A stretch of DNA of 64,000 nucleotides from an uncultured Candidatus Bathyarchaeia archaeon (GTDB taxonomy: Archaea; Thermoproteota; Bathyarchaeia; Bathyarchaeales; Bathycorpusculaceae). The translations under genes and the position numbers were made by a program. Below, piece after piece: positions 1-30,240 of the stretch (position 1 is its first letter; each line of letters starts with the position of its first letter). The stretch covers positions 3,189 through 67,188 of the forward strand of contig CAYHEV010000002.1 in the NCBI GenBank assembly GCA_964355725.1. Direction: 5' to 3'. Below the pieces are notes generated by a model. The model had not been told where the DNA came from. It was given only the letters and a program-made list of their open reading frames with translations, and did not search any database.

Positions 1-166
1 TGTGAGTGAAAACTTGCCACATTACATAGCCAGTTTTCAGCCGTGTCTACGTTACTCTCCTATCTCAACTTCTGATCATAGAGTAAAGGTTAAACATGGA
101 CACAAAAGAATCACTTCATTCCCCCTTTAGAGCTTAAGATATCGGTAGTAAGTCGACGGTGAAAGA

Positions 167-2634: not shown

Positions 2635-3972
2635 TTAGTTCTCTTTTTCAACTTCTTTTGTAACGTCTTCAATTATGTCTAATGAAGCATCGATGAGCTC
2701 TTTATTGATTATCAGTGGCGGTGCAATTCTCACGGTTGAAGCCCCGCAAGTGATCACGTTGACGCCTCGTTTCCACGATCTCATCATGATTTCGGTGACC
2801 TTTTGAGGCGCTGGTTTCTTGCTTTCTTTGTCTTCGACGATTTCCATGCCAATCATTAAGCCTTTTCCTCTTACATCGCCCACGATCTCGCTTCGGTCTT
2901 TGAATTCGCTAAGCCGCTTCATAATGTAGGCACCTTGTTTAGTCGCATTCTCCAGAAGCCTCTCTTCCTTTACGACTTCGATGACCGCGCTTGCCGCAAC
3001 ACATGACAGCGGGTTACCGCCAAAAGTGCTTGCATGAGAACCTGGAACCCAATCCATAACCTTTGCTTTGGCAATCGTTGCGCCTAGCGGCAAGCCAGAC
3101 GCCAAAGCTTTTGCAGTGCATAGAATATCAGGTTCAACACCCCAATGCTCAATTGCAAACCATTTTCCAGTCCTACCTGTACCACTCTGCACTTCGTCGT
3201 CTATGAGCAGTATGCCGTACTTGTCGGCTAACTTCTTTAATCGTTGGAAGTATTCCGGAGGTGGGACAACATAACCGCCTTCGCCTTGAATTGGCTCAAC
3301 GAGTATCCCAGCGACATCTTCGGGAGGAATATATTTCTGCAGAACATATTCGTCAATGAAGTCTACACACCAATAGTGACAGTCTGGATAAGTCAGTTTG
3401 TAGGGACAGCGGTAACAGTAGGCATAAGGCACGTGAGTGACACCGGGCATCAATGGGGAGAAATAGCGCCTTTGAGTGGGTTTGCTGGCAGTGAAAGATA
3501 AGGCTCCAATTGTACGTCCGTGAAAAGCGCTGATGAAACCAATAAACAGCTGTTTTCGACTGTGCCATTTTGCAAGCTTGACTGCTGCTTCAATTGCTTC
3601 GGCTCCGCTATTTCCAAAATACACTTTCTTCTCAAACTTCCCAGGCGAAATTTCAGTGAGCTGCTGCGCAAGATTGATAACTTCTTTATAGAAGAAGTCC
3701 GTGTTGGAATAATGCAGAAAACGGTCGCATTGGTTCTTTATTGCTGACACGACTTTAGGATGGCTGTGGCCAACATTCATGCACACCAAGCCGGAGTTAA
3801 AATCTATGAATTCATTTCCATCAACATCCTTCACTATGCAACCTTTGCCAGATTCGACAACAAGTGGATAAAACCGACCATAGGAAGGTGAAATATAGTT
3901 TTCGTCTTTTTTGACGTATTCTCTTGCTTTTGGTCCTGGTGGAGTGACAACTATTTTTGGATAATTGCTCAT
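2635..3972 (-). CDS. Class III PLP-dependent aminotransferase (GABA/acetylornithine aminotransferase family)
   Basis: 445 aa. GNSGAEA, DEVQSGTGRTG and TAKALASG (PLP-lysine region) motifs. Confidence 0.85.
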   Translation of the reverse strand: MSNYPKIVVTPPGPKAREYVKKDENYISPSYGRFYPLVVESGKGCIVKDVDGNEFIDFNSGLVCMNVGHSHPKVVSAIKNQCDRFLHYSNTDFFYKEVINLAQQLTEISPGKFEKKVYFGNSGAEAIEAAVKLAKWHSRKQLFIGFISAFHGRTIGALSFTASKPTQRRYFSPLMPGVTHVPYAYCYRCPYKLTYPDCHYWCVDFIDEYVLQKYIPPEDVAGILVEPIQGEGGYVVPPPEYFQRLKKLADKYGILLIDDEVQSGTGRTGKWFAIEHWGVEPDILCTAKALASGLPLGATIAKAKVMDWVPGSHASTFGGNPLSCVAASAVIEVVKEERLLENATKQGAYIMKRLSEFKDRSEIVGDVRGKGLMIGMEIVEDKESKKPAPQKVTEIMMRSWKRGVNVITCGASTVRIAPPLIINKELIDASLDIIEDVTKEVEKEN

Positions 3973-9372: not shown

Positions 9373-9625
9373 CTCGCGTGAGTTTTCTATGAAAGAAGCT
9401 CAGGCATATTAAAGTGTCGTGAAATAGCGCATGATCGCATCCGTAAGATTAAGACATCTGTTAACATTTACTTTGCAGTAGACATTGAGCGATTTTGACA
9501 TGAAAATTGAAAGATTGGGAACAATAGAAAGCTAAACAAACGCCATGGTGATATCCACACTATGTACTCTTAAAAGAGTAATAGTTTTATCCTTAAAACA
9601 TTAATTATAGGATTTTGCGAACACT

Positions 9626-9913
9626 ATGCCTGAACAAGGTATACCGCTCACCATATTTCACATGCTTGAGAAGAACGTGGGTAAGAAGATACGGGTGATT
9701 TTAGATCCGTCCTACGGTTTTGAGGGAACGTTGATAGCTGTGACTTCTGAGCCTTCAGGGATATGGCTGTCAGACGCTGAAGCACTTATATTGCGTGCAA
9801 CTATCGCTCAGCCTATACCGCAGGTTGCAAGCAGGGAAGAAAGAAGTGAGATATTTGTACATCTTAACTCTGTCCAGCGGATAGAAGTGTTGCATCCGCC
9901 TTCTCGCCACTAG
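9626..9913 (+). CDS. Small protein, possibly Sm-like (LSm) fold
   Basis: 95 aa. LEKNVGKKIRVIL..GFEGTLIAV....IWLSDAE ... IFVHLNSVQRIEVL resembles Sm1/Sm2 spacing. Weak call. Confidence 0.35.
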   Translation: MPEQGIPLTIFHMLEKNVGKKIRVILDPSYGFEGTLIAVTSEPSGIWLSDAEALILRATIAQPIPQVASREERSEIFVHLNSVQRIEVLHPPSRH

Positions 9914-9916
9914 ACA

Positions 9917-10087
9917 CTACTTAAAGAAAATATGCGCCAGAACACAGATTATTATTAATGCTATTGATGCAACCACAAGCAGTTCAGGTCTGACCTTAAC
10001 GCCTTCGGTTTCCTCCTCGAAAAATCTAAGAAGCCCTGCACTAGCAGCGGGCATTGGCGATGATTTCTCTTTCTTTTTCTTGCTCAA
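9917..10087 (-). CDS. secG: Preprotein translocase subunit Sec61-beta (SecG)
   Basis: Hand-translated 56-aa ORF below the track cutoff: (TTG)SKKKKEKSSPMPAASAGLLRFFEEETEGVKVRPELLVVASIALIIICVLAHIFFK. It has a K-rich N-terminus, the SAGLxRFF motif and a single C-terminal TM. An alternative ATG start is at 10054. Confidence 0.65.
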   Translation of the reverse strand: MSKKKKEKSSPMPAASAGLLRFFEEETEGVKVRPELLVVASIALIIICVLAHIFFK

Positions 10088-10176
10088 TCAACAGTCTCCT
10101 GTTTCCAAGGCAAATAGTTCCTACCATTTTCTCCATTATTAATGTTATGTTATTTTGAAAGAGTTTTTATTTCTGA

Positions 10177-11526: not shown

Positions 11527-11545
11527 TCCTAACTTTCTCATTTAG

Positions 11546-12046
11546 TTAGGAGCCAAATTCGTATTCATGAAACTCAAGCTTTGGTTTCCATGCATCGTTA
11601 AAAAAGTCAGTGAATAGTTCCGCATGTCTAAGGTTTCCAAACCTAATCGTATGTAAGAACTGTGCAGTCTGTGCGATCCTTGCAGCTGGTGCTACACTAA
11701 GAAACTCACTCCCATATTGCGTGCTTCAGAAACAACAGTTTCAACCAATTGTTTCCCTTTTCCCCGGCAGCGATACACTCTGCTGACTACTAGGGACTCT
11801 GTTTTAGCTTGTCTTCGTCAACGATCAGTCAGACGAATCCAACAAATCTGGAACCATTCACAGCAACCCAGATTTTCTCAGGTCGAATCCTAGCCAAATG
11901 CTTGTCAAAGCAATCCTCTGGATGTTTCTGCCAATCGTTGGATCTGGATAGATTCCGCGGTGCCACCCGGTCAGCTCCATTCATAAAGAACGGGAATCCT
12001 CCCTGTTATCGTCCTAGCGCTTTCTAATGGCGAAGACCACTGTCAT
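11546..12046 (-). pseudogene. Decayed GNAT acetyltransferase gene
   Basis: Hand translation of the minus strand gives GNAT-like segments split across frames: MTVVFAIRKR*DDNREDSRSL*..., IWVAVNGSRFVGFV*LIVDEDKL, YRCRGKGKQLVETVVSEARNMGVSFLV*, and LSVAPAARIAQTAQFLHTIRFGNL...EFGS*. There are several in-frame stops and at least 3 frame changes. The total span of 501 nt equals the expected GNAT size. Confidence 0.55.
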
Positions 12047-12126
12047 TCATCCCACCTGTAATATGGGTTTAGACGCCCAGCATCTTATATTGCTGATTAT
12101 TTAAACAATAGGCGTGAGGTGAAAGC

Positions 12127-12414
12127 ATGCATATCCGCGAGTTTCAGGAAATGATGCAACGCTTATATTTTCATAGGGATTCTGAACGTGACATAGCCGG
12201 AACATACAATTGGCTTGTGGAGGAAGTTAAAGAGTTGGGCGAGGCATTAAACGTGGATGATAAAGAAGCATTGGAAAAGGAGTTTGCCGATGTAATCGCA
12301 TGGATAGCCTCACTTGCAAATGTGACCAACACAGATCTCGAAAAGGCGGCACTTAACAAGTACGATAATAGATGCCCAAAATGCAGGCATTCTCCCTGCG
12401 AGTGTTCCTTCTAG
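12127..12414 (+). CDS. MazG-like nucleotide pyrophosphohydrolase (small single-domain type)
   Basis: 95 aa. EEVKELGEAL ... EKEFADVIAWIASLAN motifs. Perfect SD GAGGTGA upstream. Confidence 0.7.
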   Translation: MHIREFQEMMQRLYFHRDSERDIAGTYNWLVEEVKELGEALNVDDKEALEKEFADVIAWIASLANVTNTDLEKAALNKYDNRCPKCRHSPCECSF

Positions 12415-12683
12415 CCAGAGTTTACCAAACGTTTCTGCCCTAACCCGGTAACTACCCAAACATGAGGCTTGCTGCCTTTTCTCTCAACTATCTCCTCTGC
12501 CCTCAAAAGTTTTAGATGATGCATAACAACTCCGCAAGACATCTCAGATTCTTTGGCAACACTCTTAACGTCGCCGGATCGTTTCTCCAATACCGCCAAT
12601 ATTCTGGTCCGAGCTTGGAGACCGCGTCCAACATTTCTTATATTTGACAGATAAGCGTTAGGATGATAGATTCCTTTAACCAT
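12411..12683 (-). CDS. ArsR-family winged-helix transcriptional regulator
   Basis: 90 aa. RILAVLEKRSGDVKSVAKESEMSCGVVMHHLKLLRAEEIV is an ArsR-type HTH. Confidence 0.7.
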   Translation of the reverse strand: MVKGIYHPNAYLSNIRNVGRGLQARTRILAVLEKRSGDVKSVAKESEMSCGVVMHHLKLLRAEEIVERKGSKPHVWVVTGLGQKRLVNSG

Positions 12684-12727
12684 GTTACTCTAAAGCTACT
12701 TATGGCGGTTTATATAGAAAAGTTTTG

Positions 12728-15700
12728 TCAGGCAAAGTCCATGAGACTTACCTGTTTTGGTTTCTTGCTGTCAAATAAGGCGGTAATCTCTTCTTTCACA
12801 AGAGAAATCCTTTGTGAATAATACTTGGGCAACGCATATTTCTCAACCAAGCTTTGCGCTACCTCCAGATATTTCTCGATGCCTCCGCGGTAAACAGTTA
12901 AGGTCAAGGCTCCACCACAGGACGGACATCTACCGCGAAGAGGTAGACGGCGGAAGCGTCTGTTGCATGATTTGCATCTGAAACCCTGAGTTGAGAATGC
13001 TCTCAAGTTACCCGCAATATCGCGCATAAAGTGTTTGGCTAAGACTTTCAAAGCCACTTTTCTTGCATCTACAGCCTCAATTTTCTCAGCTAATGCAAGT
13101 TGACCGTCCAATTTTTCAATCATGGTCTTGAGCCGTTTGTATGCACTTTTAGGATTCCCGATATTAACGTCTGAGACAGGTGTTGTATAATGGAATCCTT
13201 CAAACTGCGCTTCCGTGCCAAGTCGACATCCCACAAGGTCTATGATGGAGCTAACCTGTTTTGCTTCAATTTTCTCCAATGTTTTCTCGTAGAACTCAAG
13301 CGGATAGTTGGCAGCAACATCAAAATCATGCGCTTGCCTCTGCACCTCCTTAGTGTTCACTACGGAAATCAGAAGCAATGGAGCATCCATTATTCCGCCT
13401 ATTTGTGCAGGCAAGTATTCACGGGAAAAGTTTAGCAAAGTATCCAACGCAAGCATCAACGTGTCCTCGTCGCCATCGCAGTCTCTTCGCTTGGCTGAAT
13501 GCCAAATTGGATGAGCATAACAAACGTTTAGCTTTGTGAAACCTACAATGCGGCCCAAAATGCCTACACATGTGTGGGGAGCTAAACCGACAACCAAATG
13601 CCCGACAAGATCCTCGAAAAGTTTGACATCATAATACGGTGGAACCCCGTAGACCTTTGCCAGCAGCTCGTCTGTAAAGTTTGCGACATGTAGGAAGTAT
13701 TCTGCGCTTTCTACAGGGATGACAACATCTTGGATCCTGAGCTCGCAAACTTGGCTTGCGTCAGTCAAGGGTGCGCCATAGATGTCACAAATATAGCCTA
13801 GTTGTTTGAGCTTTTCGATGGAAATTCCTATTTCAGCAGGTTTGAAATGCGTTAAAGGTGCGTTTGTAGCGTCGAAGCGAATGGTTCCATCTTTGTACAC
13901 TGATAAATCATATTTTGCACGCAGAACGCCCTTCTCCAGAATTTCAGGAGTCTTAGTCTCATTTGTTAAACCTTTAACGCCTTTCAATGCTTTGGGAATG
14001 GAAACGCCCAATTTGTTGCATATACTCTCGAGGGATTCCTTAAAGTTAACAATCTGTTTTTGATATTGTTTAGCTGGTACCTTGCAGACAGGGCATTCAG
14101 TTTCCTTCAAGCTCTTTCCACATCTGGGGCAGCTTTTCTCAAGAACGGTTTCGCAACCACAAGCAGGGCACTTGACCCTAGTAGTGAAGGTCTTACAATT
14201 GGGACATTTGCGTTTAACAACTTCCACAAATGTTGGTTCCTTCCTTGCAGCATCAACAATATCTCTGTGGGATCCCCCCGCCAACCCCACTGGGAAAAGA
14301 ACGTGGACAAGCGGTTTCATCTCACGCCTCTTTGCCTTTTCAGGTCTTCCCATCCGCGCACCAACAAAAGTTGGAGTTTTATCTCTAATCTGTATACTCG
14401 CCAGCAACCCAATTGCATCTAAAATTGATTTGGCTGAAGCGAAATCCATGTCACAAGAATCACCGTGATTCAGGCAAAACGCAAGCGCACCTGCATCTTC
14501 ATCTTCGATGAAAATTTTGCCGTCCGAAACCCTGTGTGGCAAACATATCAATTCCAAAGCGTGTTTGACCTTCGCATCAATTTCCCCAACAATTTTACAC
14601 ACAAAGTTGTCTTCGGTCTGTATTTTGGAGTTTTGAAGCCACTGTTTCATCAGTTTGAGTTCTTCGATCGAAGAGAGATTTGACCAGAAATACGTGAAAG
14701 CAGGATGTAAAGGCACACGCAACAGCGTTGAAATAGCCATAGCTTCCTTGACGCTGGGTTTGTTGTTGAAAGGATCTTCTAAGAAATTCTTCAGTCTTTC
14801 CTCCGGAATCTTGACTGTGTCTGCAGCATTCTGAAGGCTTCCGCTGAAGTTGTCAATAATAGTTCTTTGCAGATCTTGAGCCCACCATTCTTCAACATAG
14901 CCTGAAGGCACCAAGATTTTGCTATTGTACAAAAAGTCCCCAAAACTGATCAAAATGTCTCCTAAAAACAAGATTTTCTCAACCCTGCTCTTTATCAATT
15001 CGAAATTCGCAGTTGTGGCTTTGATAACCGAGCCATCATTTAGGCAAACTATTGGTGGTTCTAGGAAATCAACCGGAACTGAGATTCCGCCCTTTCCTGG
15101 AAGTTCCAAGCGCATCTGGGTTCCACCAGCCAAGAATCCTTGAAGCACAAGCATCGTTACAGGATGAATACCAACTGCAGATAAACCGGTATTCCGTGCT
15201 CTGCCGTATCGTAAGCGAAATCCCCCACGTCTAGATGGAAAGGAAAATACGGGGCGCCCAGCGATGACATCGTCCATAAATCCTGCCGATTTATTCTCTG
15301 ATTTTTTACGAAACTCCTTAAGCCAATCCCAACCTTGAAAACCAAGTTTTTCGATTATTGTTGAAACTTTCAAAGCTCGCCCAACGATACCGTCATTCAT
15401 AACTCTGAGGGCTCCGCCTCTCACACGGTTAGTCTCTATGCGGGCAAGGTTGCGAAAAGAAGAAACCTCAACAGGATCAGACTCTGTACCAGTCACTTCC
15501 ACAGGAACCCACTGAAGCGCCTTTCTCAACTCTTCATCAGGAATGTGATATTGGAAACGAGTCACGGAACGTTCGTAAATTCTCAATTCCTCAATAAATC
15601 GTGAAATCTCTTCTTCAGTAGGCTTGTAACGATCAAGTCCAAGGAGCCGCCGCACGAAATCCCCTACGACCAATGTTAAAGCCTGATCCGTTCCACCTGC

Positions 15701-16144
15701 AGACCGTATGGGACCCGCAAAGTAGATAGCAAGATAGCGCGTTCTGTCGACGTTTGTTTTGATTTTGGCTTGAGCCACGCCTTGTATGGGAGCAGCCGTC
15801 AATCCTTCGGTGAATATGGCAAGGGCTGTTCGTATAGCCTGTTCAGCAGCAATTTCAGGTTCCATATGCCCAAATTTGCCGTAAACGATCTCTTCCGTAA
15901 CTTTGAAGGCCAGTTCTTCTCTTGGAAGCCTTAAGCTCAGTTCTCTGATGCTTGCAGCAACACCTTTTGGTCCTACAAGTCCTTCCACGAGATCAGCTAA
16001 GTCCTTGGCGATTATGCATTCTGTCTTCAACGATGGATCAAATCCCTTTACTCTAGCCCTTTCGCTGATAGCGTATAGTCGTTCAAGATCTTTTTCCAGA
16101 CTCTCAGCGTATTGTCTATATGCTTCGCTCATGTAACTGCTCAA
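12728..16144 (-). CDS. polC: DNA polymerase II (PolD) large subunit DP2
   Basis: 1138 aa. Central Cys4 zinc-finger cluster (CPNC..CPAC..CPRC..CPVC) and C-terminal CKSC...CPSCGG, with DP2 length and N-terminus. No intein-sized insertion. Confidence 0.95.
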   Translation of the reverse strand: MSSYMSEAYRQYAESLEKDLERLYAISERARVKGFDPSLKTECIIAKDLADLVEGLVGPKGVAASIRELSLRLPREELAFKVTEEIVYGKFGHMEPEIAAEQAIRTALAIFTEGLTAAPIQGVAQAKIKTNVDRTRYLAIYFAGPIRSAGGTDQALTLVVGDFVRRLLGLDRYKPTEEEISRFIEELRIYERSVTRFQYHIPDEELRKALQWVPVEVTGTESDPVEVSSFRNLARIETNRVRGGALRVMNDGIVGRALKVSTIIEKLGFQGWDWLKEFRKKSENKSAGFMDDVIAGRPVFSFPSRRGGFRLRYGRARNTGLSAVGIHPVTMLVLQGFLAGGTQMRLELPGKGGISVPVDFLEPPIVCLNDGSVIKATTANFELIKSRVEKILFLGDILISFGDFLYNSKILVPSGYVEEWWAQDLQRTIIDNFSGSLQNAADTVKIPEERLKNFLEDPFNNKPSVKEAMAISTLLRVPLHPAFTYFWSNLSSIEELKLMKQWLQNSKIQTEDNFVCKIVGEIDAKVKHALELICLPHRVSDGKIFIEDEDAGALAFCLNHGDSCDMDFASAKSILDAIGLLASIQIRDKTPTFVGARMGRPEKAKRREMKPLVHVLFPVGLAGGSHRDIVDAARKEPTFVEVVKRKCPNCKTFTTRVKCPACGCETVLEKSCPRCGKSLKETECPVCKVPAKQYQKQIVNFKESLESICNKLGVSIPKALKGVKGLTNETKTPEILEKGVLRAKYDLSVYKDGTIRFDATNAPLTHFKPAEIGISIEKLKQLGYICDIYGAPLTDASQVCELRIQDVVIPVESAEYFLHVANFTDELLAKVYGVPPYYDVKLFEDLVGHLVVGLAPHTCVGILGRIVGFTKLNVCYAHPIWHSAKRRDCDGDEDTLMLALDTLLNFSREYLPAQIGGIMDAPLLLISVVNTKEVQRQAHDFDVAANYPLEFYEKTLEKIEAKQVSSIIDLVGCRLGTEAQFEGFHYTTPVSDVNIGNPKSAYKRLKTMIEKLDGQLALAEKIEAVDARKVALKVLAKHFMRDIAGNLRAFSTQGFRCKSCNRRFRRLPLRGRCPSCGGALTLTVYRGGIEKYLEVAQSLVEKYALPKYYSQRISLVKEEITALFDSKKPKQVSLMDFA

Positions 16145-20547: not shown

Positions 20548-21027
20548 TTGAAGCTGAAGGAGGGCGTCCAGACGTGGTTAATGGGTTCGTTGAACGACCC
20601 CATTGTAAAAATTATCGCCAATAACAGTCATTTATCACCAACGCAACTCGAAACATTGTTAATCGACGTTTTATCAGAAAATATCGCTGGCAAACAACTA
20701 AAATACGATGAAAAGGCCAGATTAAGACTAACAAAGGCAAAAATAAGCCGTGGATCGTTCAATAGGACTCTAAAACAGGCAAAAGAAAACGTAATAAAAT
20801 CCATCTATACTGTGCTACTCCTAGGGTACTTAGGAATCTTTGAGAACACAACTCTTGACCCCTACCTCGAAATCGCGAACAAACTGCACGATTACTTGGA
20901 GGCCTATAAAGATATTCCCAACAAAGGCGCAGAACTAAATGACCACATAAAAGTAATAGAAATGATACGGGAAGAGCTTGAAACAAGCCTAAAACATCTA
21001 TCAAATCCGTCAGAAAACCTATTGTGA
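20548..21027 (+). CDS. Hypothetical protein, possible HTH
   Basis: 159 aa. TTG start preceded by GAGGAGAG. ISRGSFNRTLKQAKENVIKSIY looks HTH-like. No family recognised. Confidence 0.4.
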   Translation: MKLKEGVQTWLMGSLNDPIVKIIANNSHLSPTQLETLLIDVLSENIAGKQLKYDEKARLRLTKAKISRGSFNRTLKQAKENVIKSIYTVLLLGYLGIFENTTLDPYLEIANKLHDYLEAYKDIPNKGAELNDHIKVIEMIREELETSLKHLSNPSENLL

Positions 21028-21320: not shown

Positions 21321-22034
21321 TTGCCAGACGTTTTACTCGGTCTAGTTGGAATTCTGGTTGCTGTAACTATTGGCGCTGCAATTGAGTATTACAGACAACT
21401 TCGAAGAGCTCAGAAAGAGTATGAGAAAGCTAGAGGAGCTATTGAAGACATCATCCTTAGTTTCAATAGGCAGTTCAAGAGTGAGAGTGGGAAGCTCGAA
21501 GTAATTGCATATAAAGTCGAGGCAGTGGATGCGAAGACTGGAGGGTTTTCGAATAGAGTAGGAGAGATTGAGAAGAAAGTGATCGCTCTAGAAGCTAATA
21601 GTGCGACTAATTCGGGAGATAAACAAAAGATGAGGACTCTGTTGGATGAAGTTGACCAGAAAATACGCGGTGCTGTTGCATCACAAGAGATGCTTAACGC
21701 AAAAATCACAAACCTAGAAAACCAAATCACACAGTTCGCGATAACTCCTGAAGCAAAGATTGAGGCAGCCATACCTATAAAAAGAGAGAAGGCTCTAGCC
21801 CATTTGACTGAAACCGAGGTGGCGGTGCTAGAACTATTGGTTTCAGAAGGCCCCAAGACGGCACCTGAGATTAAAGAAAAGGTTGGACTGAGCCGAGAAC
21901 ATACTGCTAGATTGATGAAGAATCTCTATGAGGAAGGATATCTGGAAAGAGAGACAGGTAAGATTCCGTTTAAGTATAGTGTCAAGAAAGAAATGGAGAA
22001 ACTATTGAAGAAGACGGAGAGCATGGCAACTTAG
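21321..22034 (+). CDS. Membrane-anchored coiled-coil protein with C-terminal MarR-like winged helix
   Basis: 237 aa. TTG start after GGAGTGAGGT. N-terminal TM (LLGLVGILVAVTIGAAI), a long heptad-like middle, and C-terminal LTETEVAVLELLVSEGPKTAPEIKEKVGLSREHTARLMKNLYEEGYLER. Confidence 0.55.
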   Translation: MPDVLLGLVGILVAVTIGAAIEYYRQLRRAQKEYEKARGAIEDIILSFNRQFKSESGKLEVIAYKVEAVDAKTGGFSNRVGEIEKKVIALEANSATNSGDKQKMRTLLDEVDQKIRGAVASQEMLNAKITNLENQITQFAITPEAKIEAAIPIKREKALAHLTETEVAVLELLVSEGPKTAPEIKEKVGLSREHTARLMKNLYEEGYLERETGKIPFKYSVKKEMEKLLKKTESMAT

Positions 22035-22137: not shown

Positions 22138-22557
22138 TCACTTGGAAGTGGCTTGTGGTAAATCCGTCACCAATTTGTACTTCAAACTATTTGAAGCCCC
22201 CGCCTTCAAAAGGACTTCCTTCACCGTCATCCTTGCCAGATAGGTAGCCACAGTGCTGAGGCTTATAGGCTCTTTAAACTCCTGTTCATACATGAGCTGA
22301 GCCTCCCGCGAAGAAAACCAAACAACCGGAAAATGTTTCTGGATTAATGCACGAACCTTGTTATATTTTGAAGTTTCGTTGTCTGTAGTTGGGATTTCCA
22401 TATTAGGATTATGTGCTTCACTCGGCATTCCACCCAGTAATTCCACTAAATCCAAAAGCCGAAGAGCCTTATCCCTGGTTATCTGCCCTTCAAAGGTTAT
22501 GGTGTATCGATTACCGTCACTATCGAACAGTTCGACGCGCATTCTCTTCGCAGGCAT
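22138..22557 (-). CDS. Hypothetical protein with possible C-terminal winged helix
   Basis: 139 aa. GGTG SD upstream. ISLSTVATYLARMTVKEVLLKAG..LKYKL is wHTH-like. Faces away from the origin gap. Confidence 0.5.
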   Translation of the reverse strand: MPAKRMRVELFDSDGNRYTITFEGQITRDKALRLLDLVELLGGMPSEAHNPNMEIPTTDNETSKYNKVRALIQKHFPVVWFSSREAQLMYEQEFKEPISLSTVATYLARMTVKEVLLKAGASNSLKYKLVTDLPQATSK

Positions 22558-22581
22558 CTGTGGTGTACACCTTTGGTGGTG

Positions 22582-22882
22582 TTCACAACTTTACAATTCA
22601 CAAGTTATAAGTGTTATAGTGAAAACATTATTTAGAAAACGACAGGGAATGGAAGGAAAACAGATAAACGCCCAAAATTGCAGTGTTCTCCCAGTTACAG
22701 ACTTCACAGACCACTCAAAGTGAAAAACACTGATAGAGAACCGGTAAAAAGAGTTCTCCAGTAGAAACGGAGGGGTGGTTTTTTCACAGTGAAGTGACAT
22801 AAAAAGAGCAAGAAAATGGAAAAGGAGACTTATTAAGAAACATTGTTAAATCAATTTCACAATGTTTTCACAAAAATGTGAA
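22582..22882. repeat. TTCACA/TGTGAA hexamer array
   Basis: 7 copies in about 300 bp. These include the palindromes TTCACAGTGAA (22783-22793) and TTCACAAAAATGTGAA (22867-22882). Rough chance expectation is about 0.2. Confidence 0.6.
22753..22778 (+). promoter_or_regulatory. Origin recognition box ORB-a
   Basis: GTTCTCCAGTAGAAACGGAGGGGTGG has a dyad core plus a G-string. A degenerate half copy GTTCTCCCAGTTACAG lies at 22685-22700. Confidence 0.7.
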
Positions 22883-23014
22883 CTTGGAAGTCGGCACCCC
22901 CCGTCGGTCACTTGAGAGACTATAATTGATAATGGCTACAGGATTAGGGAAGAGGTAAGTGTATAATGTATAAGACATTGGAGTAAGTACGCCTATTATC
23001 AGCGAGATAGAGTG

Positions 23015-23040
23015 CCACCCCTACTGTTCCAGTGGAAAAG
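23015..23040 (-). promoter_or_regulatory. Origin recognition box ORB-b (inverted)
   Basis: The plus strand reads CCACCCCTACTGTTCCAGTGGAAAAG. Its reverse complement CTTTTCCACTGGAACAGTAGGGGTGG matches ORB-a at 19 of 26 positions and contains the canonical TTCCAGTGGAA core. Confidence 0.8.
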
Positions 23041-23196
23041 AAAGCGGAAAAGCTAAATGATTTCTGCGGAAAGATTTTTACGGTATATCGAAAATATTGA
23101 ACTTAAACAGTTATAACGTAGCACTTGACTCTTATCATTCAGAGTATTATTTCTTCATAAGAAAGAAATCAACATTATCAATTGGTTAATATAGAA
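23041..23196. other. AT-rich candidate duplex-unwinding element between inverted ORB-b and ORB-c
   Basis: 156 bp. My hand count gives about 44 G+C (about 28%), visibly below the flanking coding sequence. Confidence 0.55.
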
Positions 23197-23220
23197 TTCC
23201 ACAAGAAACACAGGGGTGTG
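23197..23220 (+). promoter_or_regulatory. Origin recognition box ORB-c
   Basis: TTCCACAAGAAACACAGGGGTGTG has an ORB-like core with a GGGGTG string, in the opposite orientation to ORB-b. Confidence 0.6.
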
Positions 23221-23312
23221 TCTTATATTCTTGACATTTGATTATCTTACAATTACTTCCATTTTAGAATTGTAATGCTAGCGGTTTAGATTTCTGTACG
23301 GGACAACTTATG

Positions 23313-23334
23313 TTTTCCAGAAGAAATAGAGGCG
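23313..23334 (+). promoter_or_regulatory. ORB-like box ORB-d (weak G-string), 29 nt before the orc1/cdc6 ATG
   Basis: TTTTCCAGAAGAAATAGAGGCG matches ORB-a at 17 of 22 positions. Its position suggests autoregulation. Confidence 0.5.
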
Positions 23335-23362
23335 TTACCTTTGAATCTTCGGTGGAGAGATC

Positions 23363-24613
23363 ATGAGCGACGCTAGCATATTGGATGATGTGTTCGACAA
23401 GTTCGTTAGTAACACACGAATTTTTAGGGATAGAGAAGTATTACGCCATGATTACTTGCCTGATAGACTACCGCATAGGGAAGAACAGATTAGACATTTA
23501 GGAGAAACAGTGTCTCCAGTTCTTAAGGGTGCCCGAAGTTCTAACATTTTTGTTTATGGGAAAACTGGCACAGGTAAAACAGCAGTTGCAAAGTATGTAC
23601 TAAGTCATCTTGAGTTTAAGGCAAAGGAGTTCCATGCTCCTGTTAGGTTCTGTTTTGTGAATTGCCACATGGCAGGTTCTGAATATCGTGTTTTTGCTAG
23701 TTTATGCCAGAGTATGGGCCTATCTGTTCCGTTTACTGGGTTGTCAGTTGGCGAAGTCTTTGACCGATTTAGCGCTGGTGTGGACAGCTCCAAGATTATT
23801 CTTATGGTGGTTTTGGATGAAGTTGATGCATTGATCAAAACACGAGGTGATGGTCTTCTCTACGAGCTGACGAGAATAAATGAAATTCTCCGGAAAAGCA
23901 AGGTGACTCTAATTTGCATATCTAACGACTTGCGACTGAAAGAGTTTCTTGATCCCCGTGTTCTTAGTTCATTGAGTGAGGAAGAGATTGTTTTTAGACC
24001 TTATGACGCGGATGAGTTGAGGAATATCCTTTTTGAACGTACTAACTCAGCTTTCTGTGAGAATGCCTTATCTGATGCGGCTCTTGGACTTTGTGCGGCT
24101 CTGGCTGCAGCGGAACATGGCGATGCCAGACGCGCGTTGGATTTGTTACGTGTTGCAGGCGAAATGGCTGAACGGAAGGGTGTGAATGTCGTGACTGAGG
24201 AACATGTCCGAGAGGCTGAAAAGCACATTGAACACAATCGCGTTGTTGAGGCTCTCCAGAATTTGACTCTTCATGCCAAACTAGTTGTTCTGAGCATCTA
24301 CCACTTGAATAGAGTGAGTGCTCACAGTGCTGTCACGGGTGAAATCTATGAGGTTTATAGTGAACTTGGCGGAGAGGTAGGCGTTACTCCTTTAACGCAG
24401 CGACGCTTCAGCTCGTTGGTTAATGAACTTGATGCTATGGGGTTGCTGAACGCGAAGGTTATCAGTATGGGGAGATATGGGCGAACTAAGAAAATTAGGT
24501 TGGATATTTCACGGGGTCTTATTAGGGATGTTTTTGCAGGAGATAGCCGATTTGGTCGTTTGGTTGATTATGACCCTGCGTGTTTCTCAAAAGGTACACC
24601 TAATGAAAGATAA
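23363..24613 (+). CDS. cdc6: Orc1/Cdc6 replication initiator
   Basis: 416 aa. Walker A GKTGTGKT, Walker B VLDEVD, C-terminal winged helix. SD GGTGGAG upstream. Confidence 0.95.
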   Translation: MSDASILDDVFDKFVSNTRIFRDREVLRHDYLPDRLPHREEQIRHLGETVSPVLKGARSSNIFVYGKTGTGKTAVAKYVLSHLEFKAKEFHAPVRFCFVNCHMAGSEYRVFASLCQSMGLSVPFTGLSVGEVFDRFSAGVDSSKIILMVVLDEVDALIKTRGDGLLYELTRINEILRKSKVTLICISNDLRLKEFLDPRVLSSLSEEEIVFRPYDADELRNILFERTNSAFCENALSDAALGLCAALAAAEHGDARRALDLLRVAGEMAERKGVNVVTEEHVREAEKHIEHNRVVEALQNLTLHAKLVVLSIYHLNRVSAHSAVTGEIYEVYSELGGEVGVTPLTQRRFSSLVNELDAMGLLNAKVISMGRYGRTKKIRLDISRGLIRDVFAGDSRFGRLVDYDPACFSKGTPNER

Positions 24614-24667: not shown

Positions 24668-26233
24668 TCAGTCGAATTGCACTACAGTGACTTCCAACGT
24701 CTGAAGGTTCACTACCGGAACCTTCGCTGGTGTTGGGGTAAAACCGTTTCTTCGCATGTAGTCAGTTTGTTCTTGCCAGCATCCAGAATTTACGACTAAA
24801 ACTCCCCGGTAATTTCCATATTCCAGTGCATGCACATGCCCAGCATGGAAAATATCTGGAATTCGCTCAATGACTAAGAAGTCTCTGCTCTCAGGTGACA
24901 AAGGTGTTTTTCCGCCGTAAACTGGTGCTAGGTGGCGACTCTGTAACAGTAACCGCATTGCTTTCTCTGGGTGGCTGTGAGTCATCCCCGGGACTGTCGA
25001 GACAATGTCATCCAAGCTGCGGCCATGATATTCTAATAGTTCTACACCGTGTAGACTGAGAAGGCATGGGCTCCCGAGGGAATGCACCTTTCTTGATTCT
25101 TGCAGAGTCTCCAAGAAGGCTTTTGCTATAGCTGGTTGAGGCAAGGCTTTTCTTGGGGCGTCATGATTCCCAGGTGTAATGATGACTTCTACGTAGTCGG
25201 GAATTTGTTCGATGTATTTTGAGGCAAGTCTGTATTGTTTGTGCACGTCTTTGACTGTCAATTCTTTTATCTGATTGGGATAGACTCCTACTCCGTCAAC
25301 GATGTCACCTGCTACTAGAACATATTTGACGTGGCCGGCAATTTCTCTCATTCTCTCGTTGCCATATTTGCCGTTGAGCCAGAGTATAAAACGGTTGAAG
25401 GCTTCTCTGGTGAATTTTGCGCTGCCTACATGCATGTCTGACGTAAGAACCGCACAGACTGGAACAGGAGCCTTGTGCTGTAATCTCTGCGCTACGTCGG
25501 GCAGAATGATGTCTTCCGCGATTAGAAGGCTGCTTCTTGTTTTCATGACGCTTAGACATATGACTTGGTCAAGGAGAAGAAACCGGGCTTTTTTCTGAAG
25601 CTCTGTCGGGGCGTTCTGTGGTACAAGCACTGTGGCATGGGCCTTTAGATCTTCGATGGTGAGTATGGTTCGCTGTTTCGATTCACGTTTTTCTGTTATC
25701 ATGCCTATTACTTTAAGCCTGGTGTTTGGTTGTGCTCTCAGAGCGTCTAGAATCGAAGTAGCACTCTTAACGTCTATTCTTTGTCGCAGCAGTTTTTCTG
25801 TTCTGTTGAACCTGTCTTGGAAGTATTCTAGGAAGTCTTCGATTGTTCCGTTTGTGCTTATCTTAGTAGTTGGGTCTTCGATTATGTTTATGTTTGCTTC
25901 AATCTCTCTTGCATAGGGGTGAAAGGGCGTTTTCGATTCTGTCATCTGCGTTGCCTGCGTTGTAGAATGAGTTTGAAGAGTGGACTCTGACGGTTGCATA
26001 ATTATTTCTTTTGCTGAATCTAGAGGTTCTAAAAGTTGTTCCAGAACACTTCTTTCGATAAAGAATGGTTTTTCTTTTAATTTTCCTATTTGCCGTATTG
26101 CCTTGCTCACGAGTTCAGCTGGATCTTCTGTTGCGGCTATTAGGTTTAGGAACTCAAAAGCTTCTTTGTTAAGTTGGTATCCTGCTGCAATTGTTTGTTC
26201 TACAGCTTTCTGCAGTTTTTGTGCTTCACTCAT
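24668..26233 (-). CDS. polB: DNA polymerase II (PolD) small subunit DP1 (3'-5' exonuclease)
   Basis: 521 aa. Calcineurin-like phosphoesterase motifs VAGDIVDGVG, PGNHD and HAGHVH. Confidence 0.9.
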   Translation of the reverse strand: MSEAQKLQKAVEQTIAAGYQLNKEAFEFLNLIAATEDPAELVSKAIRQIGKLKEKPFFIERSVLEQLLEPLDSAKEIIMQPSESTLQTHSTTQATQMTESKTPFHPYAREIEANINIIEDPTTKISTNGTIEDFLEYFQDRFNRTEKLLRQRIDVKSATSILDALRAQPNTRLKVIGMITEKRESKQRTILTIEDLKAHATVLVPQNAPTELQKKARFLLLDQVICLSVMKTRSSLLIAEDIILPDVAQRLQHKAPVPVCAVLTSDMHVGSAKFTREAFNRFILWLNGKYGNERMREIAGHVKYVLVAGDIVDGVGVYPNQIKELTVKDVHKQYRLASKYIEQIPDYVEVIITPGNHDAPRKALPQPAIAKAFLETLQESRKVHSLGSPCLLSLHGVELLEYHGRSLDDIVSTVPGMTHSHPEKAMRLLLQSRHLAPVYGGKTPLSPESRDFLVIERIPDIFHAGHVHALEYGNYRGVLVVNSGCWQEQTDYMRRNGFTPTPAKVPVVNLQTLEVTVVQFD

Positions 26234-30113: not shown

Positions 30114-30240
30114 GCCGGGGTGGCGGAGTGGTTATCGCGCTGGCCTCGAGATCTTGAAACGAAAAGGGGCTTGTAATAAGAGGACAAGTAAGCCAGTGGG
30201 CCTTTGGCTCGCAGGGGTTCGAGTCCCTTCCCCGGCGCCA
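30114..30240 (+). tRNA. tRNA-Ser(CGA) with an anticodon-loop intron and encoded CCA
   Basis: Hand fold. Acceptor GCCGGGG/CCCCGGC, D arm GCGG-AGTGGTTA-TCGC, anticodon stem CTGGC/GCCAG. The loop is CTCGAG^A with anticodon CGA at 30147-30149. An insert of about 40 nt (30151-30190) sits at the canonical 37/38 site. The long variable arm is GGGCC-TTT-GGCTC, the T arm is AGGGG-TTCGAGT-CCCTT, and the discriminator is G followed by CCA. Confidence 0.85.

Follow-up and report, generated by a model that had tools for sequence, protein, structure and literature searches.

A predicted oriC1-type replication origin and a neighbouring array of TTCACA boxes upstream of orc1 in a Bathyarchaeia archaeon

The closest described counterparts of the locus studied here, a predicted chromosomal replication origin (oriC) upstream of the initiator gene orc1/cdc6 of a Bathyarchaeia archaeon, are oriC1 of Sulfolobus and oriC of Pyrococcus. 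In Sulfolobus, each origin recognition box (ORB) binds one Orc1-1 monomer with a defined polarity, an AT-rich unwinding element lies between the oppositely oriented boxes ORB2 and ORB3, and initiation has been mapped to the junction between this element and an ORB (PMC12141716). Mutation of either flanking ORB abolished the firing of S. islandicus oriC1 in marker-frequency assays; firing also needs ucm, a non-ORB origin motif that is bound by the small accessory protein UBP (PMC12141716). The oriC of P. abyssi also lies at a peak of the amino-keto (MK) disparity curve (PMC4164010). Bathyarchaeia are abundant archaea of sediments and soils and are mostly known from metagenome-assembled genomes (MAGs). 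Our literature search found no paper on a Bathyarchaeia origin; automated databases (DoriC was not queried) may list predictions.

In this study, we analyzed 64,000 nucleotides of contig CAYHEV010000002.1 from an uncultured Candidatus Bathyarchaeia archaeon (positions 3,189 to 67,188; hereafter the window). An initial annotation had proposed a candidate oriC, with four ORBs and an AT-rich core, in the gap between orc1 and a divergent gene, here called up139. We consider it very likely that this gap is the Orc1-dependent, oriC1-type origin of the chromosome, and the earlier proposal is supported by the adjacent initiator gene, the ORB matches, the inverted box pair with its core, the conservation in relatives and a switch in strand composition. 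The positions that it gave for the ORBs stood, but it had overlooked an array of TTCACA boxes, a conserved block within the core and the conservation of the divergent gene, whose product is predicted to be a winged-helix protein.

ORB boxes, AT-rich core and initiator gene

All four boxes of the initial annotation, ORB-a to ORB-d, were found at the same coordinates (Table 1), and a repeat search recovered them as a direct family (a, c and d) and as the inverted pairs a/b and b/c. ORB-a consists of a dyad, TCCAGTAGAA, followed by 4 nt and then GGGGTGG. A pattern derived from the four boxes had 4 exact matches in the 64 kb, all of them in the gap and none elsewhere. This test is circular, since the pattern was built from the boxes, and two independent probes were hence used. 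The first was the 'common' ORB motif of Ori-Finder 2, TCCA[CG]T[TG]GAAA[TC][GA]AAGGGGT (PMC4164010), which was searched on both strands (128 kb) with at most 3 mismatches. The results showed that it matched only ORB-a, ORB-b and ORB-c in the window (2-3 mismatches, with 2 in ORB-a), giving 3 matches where 0.02 were expected. ORB-d was not among the matches at this threshold; it is the weakest box, and its G-string is broken (GGCG). The second probe was the 23-mer ORB of S. islandicus oriC1, reconstructed from the mutagenesis oligonucleotides of PMC12141716. Its best two matches in the window were ORB-a and ORB-b, each 19/23 identical (4 mismatches), while a shuffled control gave 0.005 matches at up to 5 mismatches.

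The 27-mer ORB1 of P. furiosus had no good match in the window; its best matches carried 9-10 mismatches and lay away from the boxes. Because the long Pyrococcus ORB (PMC1904270) shares with the boxes the dyad core alone, we class the boxes, by their sequence, with the Sulfolobus or 'common' ORB type, which has 4 nt between GAAA and GGGGT. The likeness to both Pyrococcus and Sulfolobus ORBs that had been claimed therefore holds for the Sulfolobus/common type, and for Pyrococcus it holds for the dyad core but not for the full long ORB. A degenerate ORB-like sequence, TCTCTCAAGTGACCGACGGGGGG, was also seen at 22897-22919 on the minus strand (7/23 mismatches to the Sulfolobus ORB). Its place is the variable spacer that separates ORB-a from ORB-b; relatives do not conserve it, and it probably has no function.

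ORB-b on the minus strand and ORB-c on the plus strand form an inverted pair, with their dyads facing an AT-rich core and their G-strings pointing outward; ORB-a is placed about 240 bp to the left of this pair. The G+C content of the 156 bp between them, previously counted by hand at about 28%, was computed as 28.2%. All 156-bp segments of the 64 kb with a G+C content of at most 28.2% were located within 23036-23298 and made up 0.06% of such segments. By nearest-neighbour energy, the least stable 100-bp segment was 23094-23193, and the least stable 100-bp and 156-bp segments of the 64 kb both lay inside 23094-23280, overlapping the core.

Within the core, the conserved block at 23131-23155 carries a nearly invariant CAGAGTA, and CAGAGTAT at 23140-23147 is nearly invariant across the clade. 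Further conserved blocks in the core were seen at 23087-23103, 23108-23117 and 23162-23176. The block at 23131-23155 is comparable to the Sulfolobus ucm in position and differs from it in sequence. The ucm is a feature of crenarchaeal origins in Sulfolobales and Aeropyrum. Its motif, ATTATACAAA[A/C], was read from the supplementary oligonucleotides of PMC12141716, and a search of both strands of 23041-23196 returned no ATTATACAAA, TTATACAA or TATACAA. With the ucm sequence absent, the block was rejected as a Sulfolobus-type ucm.

The product of orc1 matched Cdc6_C, Cdc6_lid and AAA in Pfam, and TIGR02928 in NCBIfam with 424 bits (cut-off 181). It aligned end to end with Orc1-1 of S. solfataricus (2QBY_A, E = 6.9e-107), the closest solved structure, and the next was ORC1 of A. 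pernix (2V1U_A, E = 1.8e-101). We take both structures to be of Orc1 proteins crystallised on ORB DNA. By homology, the protein is assigned to the Orc1-1 initiator type and not to the Orc1-2 type, and no Orc1 paralogue was found in the 64-kb window. An identical protein is found in the databases, together with hundreds of relatives that are 72-82% identical to it and, where named, come from Bathyarchaeota/Bathyarchaeia MAGs.

In the leader of orc1, conserved T/A-rich promoter-like blocks (23260-23277 and 23284-23304) lie upstream of ORB-d, and a Shine-Dalgarno-like GGTGGAG lies downstream of it, before the ATG at 23363. The distance from the end of ORB-d to this ATG is 28 nt and not 29 nt, as had been given. 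RNAalifold predicted zero pairs for the leader in 25 sequences, and Rfam gave no match in 22500-23420 at E up to 1; a noncoding RNA or structured leader was rejected on these two results. A scan for bacterial promoters and terminators was uninformative for an archaeon.

The polarity of the Sulfolobus ORBs, as read from the oligonucleotides of PMC12141716, places the dyad beside the unwinding element and the G-string outward. Because ORB-b and ORB-c share this polarity, we infer that the same mechanism operates here. By homology with Sulfolobus, Orc1-1-type monomers with AAA+ and winged-helix parts would bind ORB-b and ORB-c with opposite polarity. ATP-bound Orc1 would recruit MCM hexamers to the core, the duplex would open there, and forks would leave the AT-rich core in both directions. 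ORB-a may act as a third, additional high-affinity Orc1 site. Orc1 bound to ORB-d would obstruct orc1 transcription, and because this box lies between the promoter-like blocks and the start codon, it is plausible, and judging from this position probable, that Orc1 damps its own transcription through ORB-d.

Table 1. Features of the predicted origin and neighbouring genes (positions refer to the window)
Feature	Position	Strand	Remarks
ORB-a, GTTCTCCAGTAGAAACGGAGGGGTGG	22753-22778	+	Distal box; coordinates as in the initial annotation
ORB-b, reverse complement CTTTTCCACTGGAACAGTAGGGGTGG	23015-23040	-	Left box of the inverted pair
ORB-c, TTCCACAAGAAACACAGGGGTGTG	23197-23220	+	Right box of the inverted pair, dyad adjoining the AT-rich core
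ORB-d, TTTTCCAGAAGAAATAGAGGCG	23313-23334	+	Variant box in the orc1 leader
AT-rich core, candidate duplex unwinding element	23041-23196		156 bp, 28.2% G+C
Conserved block in the AT-rich core	23131-23155		Consensus cTTACCTtTCAGAGTATATTTCTT; alignment of 75 upstream regions
TTCACA array, seven boxes	22582-22882	six +, one -	Hexamer count
orc1/cdc6, 416 aa, predicted Orc1-1 type	23363-24613	+	Pfam, NCBIfam and PDB search
up139 gene, 139-aa protein without family assignment	22138-22557	-	Divergent from orc1
PolD small subunit DP1	24668-26233	-	Convergent with orc1; Pfam
PolD large subunit DP2	12728-16144	-	Pfam

The gap itself (22558-23362) measures 805 bp between the divergent genes up139 (-) and orc1 (+). 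It had been called the largest gene-free gap of the window; the size was correct, but the rank is only approximate, as a rival gap at 9373-10176 measures 804 bp if its unsupported open reading frame (ORF) of 95 aa is no gene. A longer stretch of 1.2 kb (11527-12727) is not gene-free and contains small real genes, encoding MazG and an ArsR-type helix-turn-helix (HTH) protein. Both PolD subunits are encoded near the candidate origin, with DP2 about 7 kb to the left and DP1 directly downstream of orc1. Further to the right, Rfam detected a tRNA at 30114-30237 (+) with 46 bits, whose length of 124 nt suggests an intron; ARAGORN reported no tRNA in the window.

Conservation in relatives and strand composition

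We compared 80 Bathyarchaeia orc1 loci of about 9 kb each, with Orc1 identities of 71-82%. When the ORB pattern was searched with at most 1 mismatch, 211/212 matches were located within 800 bp upstream of orc1, and the remaining ~8 kb per locus contained one match in total. Relative to orc1, the boxes recurred at about -606(+), -350(-) and -167(+), with a weaker box at about -47(+). At the ORB-a position the pattern matched perfectly in 61/76 copies. The clade consensus of ORB-b at about -350(-), TCCAgTGGAAATgAAGGGGT, fits the common ORB motif exactly by our own reading, and the counterpart of ORB-c stands at about -167(+). ORB-d is kept as a variant, in which TCCA...GAAA is intact and the G-string reads GGTGT. 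The interval between ORB-b and ORB-c measured 146-188 bp in 77/77 relatives, with a mean G+C content of 26.7% compared with 43.9% for the locus. These comparisons indicate that strong purifying selection acts on where the boxes lie, how they are oriented and how far apart they are.

The gene order orf159, TrmB-like gene, up139, oriC, orc1, DP1, PhoU was kept in 45 to 78 of the 80 loci, and the synteny up139-oriC-orc1-DP1-PhoU in 73 to 78. Counted gene by gene, a divergent up139 was present at the locus in 74/80 and DP1 in 78/80.

Some loci in the comparison set bear on the quality of the genome bins. One MAG, HHBFW-2_201803_bins_186, contains two complete oriC-orc1 loci (L035 and L050) whose synteny is the same, whose Orc1 proteins are 78% identical and whose boxes are spaced differently. 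The possibility of two origins in one genome was rejected on the full orthologous synteny of both loci together with the 78% identity, and the MAG is most likely a chimeric bin of two Bathyarchaeia genomes. Three contigs of 3-5 kb (L004, L051 and L020), filed as Candidatus Acidoferrum, Acidiferrales bacterium and Promethearchaeati, bear a Bathyarchaeia-type orc1 (76-78% identity) and the full ORB architecture; they probably belong to Bathyarchaeia and were mis-binned. A recognisable oriC serves as a fixed landmark to orient and check MAGs, as the chimeric bin and the three contigs that were probably mis-binned illustrate. It also helps to estimate growth rates from the ratio of origin to terminus coverage and, if cultures become tractable, to design shuttle vectors.

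The strand composition of the window was then considered. Over the window, cumulative AT skew and MK disparity both peaked at 23212, within ORB-c and on the border of the core. Gene orientation was controlled through third codon positions in 61 ORFs of at least 100 aa. The plus-strand AT skew at third positions (AT3 skew) was positive to the left of the gap on both gene strands (+0.27 and +0.07) and negative to the right on both (-0.03 and -0.17). In a linear model, the AT3 side coefficient was -0.130 (t = -4.7, p = 1.9e-5), and the best AT3 split among the 51 gene boundaries tested (of 60) fell exactly between up139 and orc1. For GC skew at third positions (GC3 skew), the side effect across the gap was not significant in the window. 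Among relatives, an AT3 shift of the same sign was found in 59/60 and a complementary GC3 shift in 48/60. T and G are in excess on the rightward leading strand, the usual polarity for leading strands. The switch in composition at the gap implies long-term bidirectional replication from this locus.

TTCACA boxes and the divergent up139 gene

The gap contains a second repeated element, the hexamer TTCACA, which occurs on the plus strand at 22582, 22597, 22703, 22783, 22856 and 22867 and on the minus strand at 22877. These boxes represent 7 of the 44 copies in the window and lie within 300 bp, whereas any other cluster holds at most 3. They flank ORB-a, and two of them reach the promoter region of up139. 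In relatives, TTCACA was enriched about 30-fold at -800 to -400. A locus had a median of 6 copies, whose positions are conserved, and 85% of the copies lay on one strand (380 on the plus strand vs 69 on the minus strand).

Two known classes of origin element were compared with these boxes. The Methanobacteriaceae-type mini-ORB, TT[TA]CACTTGAAAT, was found 62 times at up to 3 mismatches against 63 expected, and the gap was not enriched; with no enrichment, this identity was rejected. The relaxed DnaA-box consensus, TTWTNCACA, is matched at one site, TTTTTCACA (22780-22788). The boxes were rejected as DnaA boxes because the sequences flanking them lack conservation and because, to our knowledge, DnaA is absent from archaea. 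The literature matches for TTCACA were papers on bacterial DnaA boxes, which was also counted against the DnaA reading.

We then analyzed the protein encoded by up139. Its family comprises proteins of 139-145 aa, with 3025 homologues that are all unnamed; the few that carry an organism name are all from Bathyarchaeia. No family was assigned by Pfam or NCBIfam, and a PDB sequence search yielded only spurious DARPin matches. An AlphaFold2 (AF2) model was of moderate confidence, with a mean pLDDT score of 61 and 70-77 in the C-terminal domain, where the modelled order of helix-helix-helix-strand-strand is that of a winged helix. The top Foldseek matches of the model were winged-helix DNA binders, namely STIV F93, Fur, RosR and BlaI/MecI, with E of about 1e-2. 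The N-terminus contains an invariant beta-hairpin/helix segment, FEGQ.TR...LLD.VELLGG.

The up139 protein is a candidate ligand of the TTCACA boxes, to which it is linked by adjacency. We propose tentatively, as a possibility and not as the expected outcome, that Bathyarchaeia origins carry a lineage-specific accessory module of about seven oriented TTCACA boxes and a dedicated small DNA-binding protein, for which the up139 protein would be the obvious candidate.

Another gene in the neighbourhood (21321-22034, +) encodes a 237-aa protein with a C-terminal TrmB/Lrs14-like winged HTH (Pfam, NCBIfam). By eye, its N-terminus resembles a hydrophobic helix, after which comes a long stretch that may form a coiled coil. 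This TrmB/Lrs14-like gene was syntenic with the origin in 57/80 loci, and orf159 (20548-21027, no family) in 45/80.

Alternative readings and comparison with known archaeal origins

At the sequence level, the locus joins an adjacent initiator, ORBs confined to the locus, an inverted pair around an AT-rich core and the window-wide extreme of the disparity curve. Several points weigh against reading it as the active chromosomal origin. GC skew over the 64-kb window was without an inflection at the locus. AT skew and MK disparity do switch at the gap, so that the lack of any skew inflection, which the initial annotation had named as a refutation, was not observed. The skew extremes are those of the 64-kb window and of the 9-kb loci, not of a whole chromosome, and the replicate in relatives uses the same syntenic genes, so that it cannot count as wholly independent of the composition peculiar to each gene. 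Against the published motif, 3 mismatches were counted in ORB-c and, by hand alignment, 4 in ORB-d. Both the binding of Orc1 to the boxes and the firing of the origin are predictions. In addition, two reports describe Thermococcus species, T. kodakarensis and T. barophilus, in which the canonical, ORB-bearing oriC is dispensable (PMC5663688, PMC11005403). By this precedent, the gap might hold a genuine but dormant or dispensable cluster of ORBs and Orc1, with replication mostly starting elsewhere or by recombination-dependent initiation. We regard this as improbable, since the composition switch at the gap in the window and in 59/60 relatives argues for long-term use and the boxes are held in position, orientation and spacing by strong purifying selection.

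It is very unlikely, in our judgement, that the gap is a purely transcriptional control region, in which the ORB-like and TTCACA boxes are operators for orc1 and up139 and Orc1 acts as a transcription factor without any initiation. The gap does separate two divergent promoters, presumed promoter or leader regions contain ORB-d and TTCACA boxes 1-2, and Orc1 paralogues can be regulators, as is Orc1-2 of Sulfolobus (PMC9738581). However, this explanation leaves unaccounted for the composition switch and the fact that the inverted ORBs bracket the window's least stable DNA, and the protein here is of the predicted Orc1-1 initiator type, not Orc1-2. The roles of operator and origin are compatible, and ORB-d may well be an operator inside an origin. 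Archaeal secondary origins often arise by the capture of extrachromosomal elements (PMC4010727), and the origin here, with its initiator gene, might likewise derive from an integrated plasmid or virus and not be the ancestral chromosomal origin. We give such a capture hardly any credence: synteny with the core genes (DP1, PhoU and up139) is kept in 73 to 78/80 genomes with Orc1 identities of 71-82%, the oriC1 type to which the ORBs belong is universally conserved, and no ORB clusters were found in viral contigs. The ORB pattern TTCCANNNGAANNNNAGGGGTG matched once in each of 74 IMG/VR viral contigs (L081-L154) and was never clustered; we judge these single matches, without a computed expectation, to be chance for 15 specified bases in a collection of this size, and they give no sign that this origin type is carried by viruses or plasmids.

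Compared with oriC1 of S. solfataricus and S. islandicus, the locus shares the initiator gene adjoining the origin, and its Orc1 is most similar to S. solfataricus Orc1-1 (2QBY_A). The boxes share the order of dyad, 4 nt and GGGGT, with TCTCCAATGGAACCGAAGGGGTG in Sulfolobus and TCTCCAGTAGAAACGGAGGGGTG here being 19/23 identical. Inverted ORBs, with their dyads proximal to an AT-rich unwinding element, and a further ORB to one side are found in both. These similarities suggest that the Sulfolobus oriC1/Orc1-1 architecture, including the box polarity and the 4-nt spacing from dyad to G-string, extends to Bathyarchaeia. The two differ in the core between the boxes, which is 146-188 bp here and about 130 bp in the ORB3-DUE-ORB2 region (DUE, duplex unwinding element) of Sulfolobus. 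They also differ in the UBP-bound ucm, ATTATACAAA, which is absent here, where the core contains the CAGAGTAT block instead, and in the fourth, variant ORB that lies in the orc1 leader here. We know of no counterpart of the TTCACA array in Sulfolobus oriC1.

With the oriC of Pyrococcus and other Thermococcales, the locus shares the position upstream of cdc6/orc1 with genes for PolD subunits next door, and DP1 and DP2 near orc1 recall the oriC-cdc6-dp1-dp2 cluster of Pyrococcus. Long ORBs in inverted orientation frame AT-rich DNA, and a TTCCA..GGAA dyad core and an MK-disparity peak at the origin are also common to the two. However, the long Pyrococcus ORB has a 9-nt spacer before the G-run; only the mini-ORB core matches here, and the long ORB with a 9-nt spacer that is typical of Thermococcales was not found. 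Origins of the Thermococcales type also have clusters of 13-bp mini-ORBs, and a second such cluster lies within dp1. In dp1 of the window, the derived pattern had no match at up to 2 mismatches, and 13-bp mini-ORBs were not scanned for there. The extra short repeats of the Bathyarchaeia locus are TTCACA boxes and not mini-ORBs as in Pyrococcus.

As an origin, the locus is of the canonical oriC1 type, which is textbook biology and no surprise to a specialist; only the TTCACA array with its neighbouring gene for a predicted winged-helix protein might represent new biology. The ucm-UBP module of Sulfolobus shows that an archaeal origin can have a second conserved motif besides its ORBs. It differs from the arrangement here in that the TTCACA boxes are placed beyond the main AT-rich core, and in that up139 matches only generic winged-helix proteins; UBP does not appear by name among the PDB matches listed. 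The array and the up139 protein are thus a testable lead to a possible accessory factor of the origin. If such an accessory module exists, it might tune the firing of the origin or tie firing to transcription, and it would be comparable to ucm-UBP in Sulfolobus or to IHF and Fis at the bacterial oriC.

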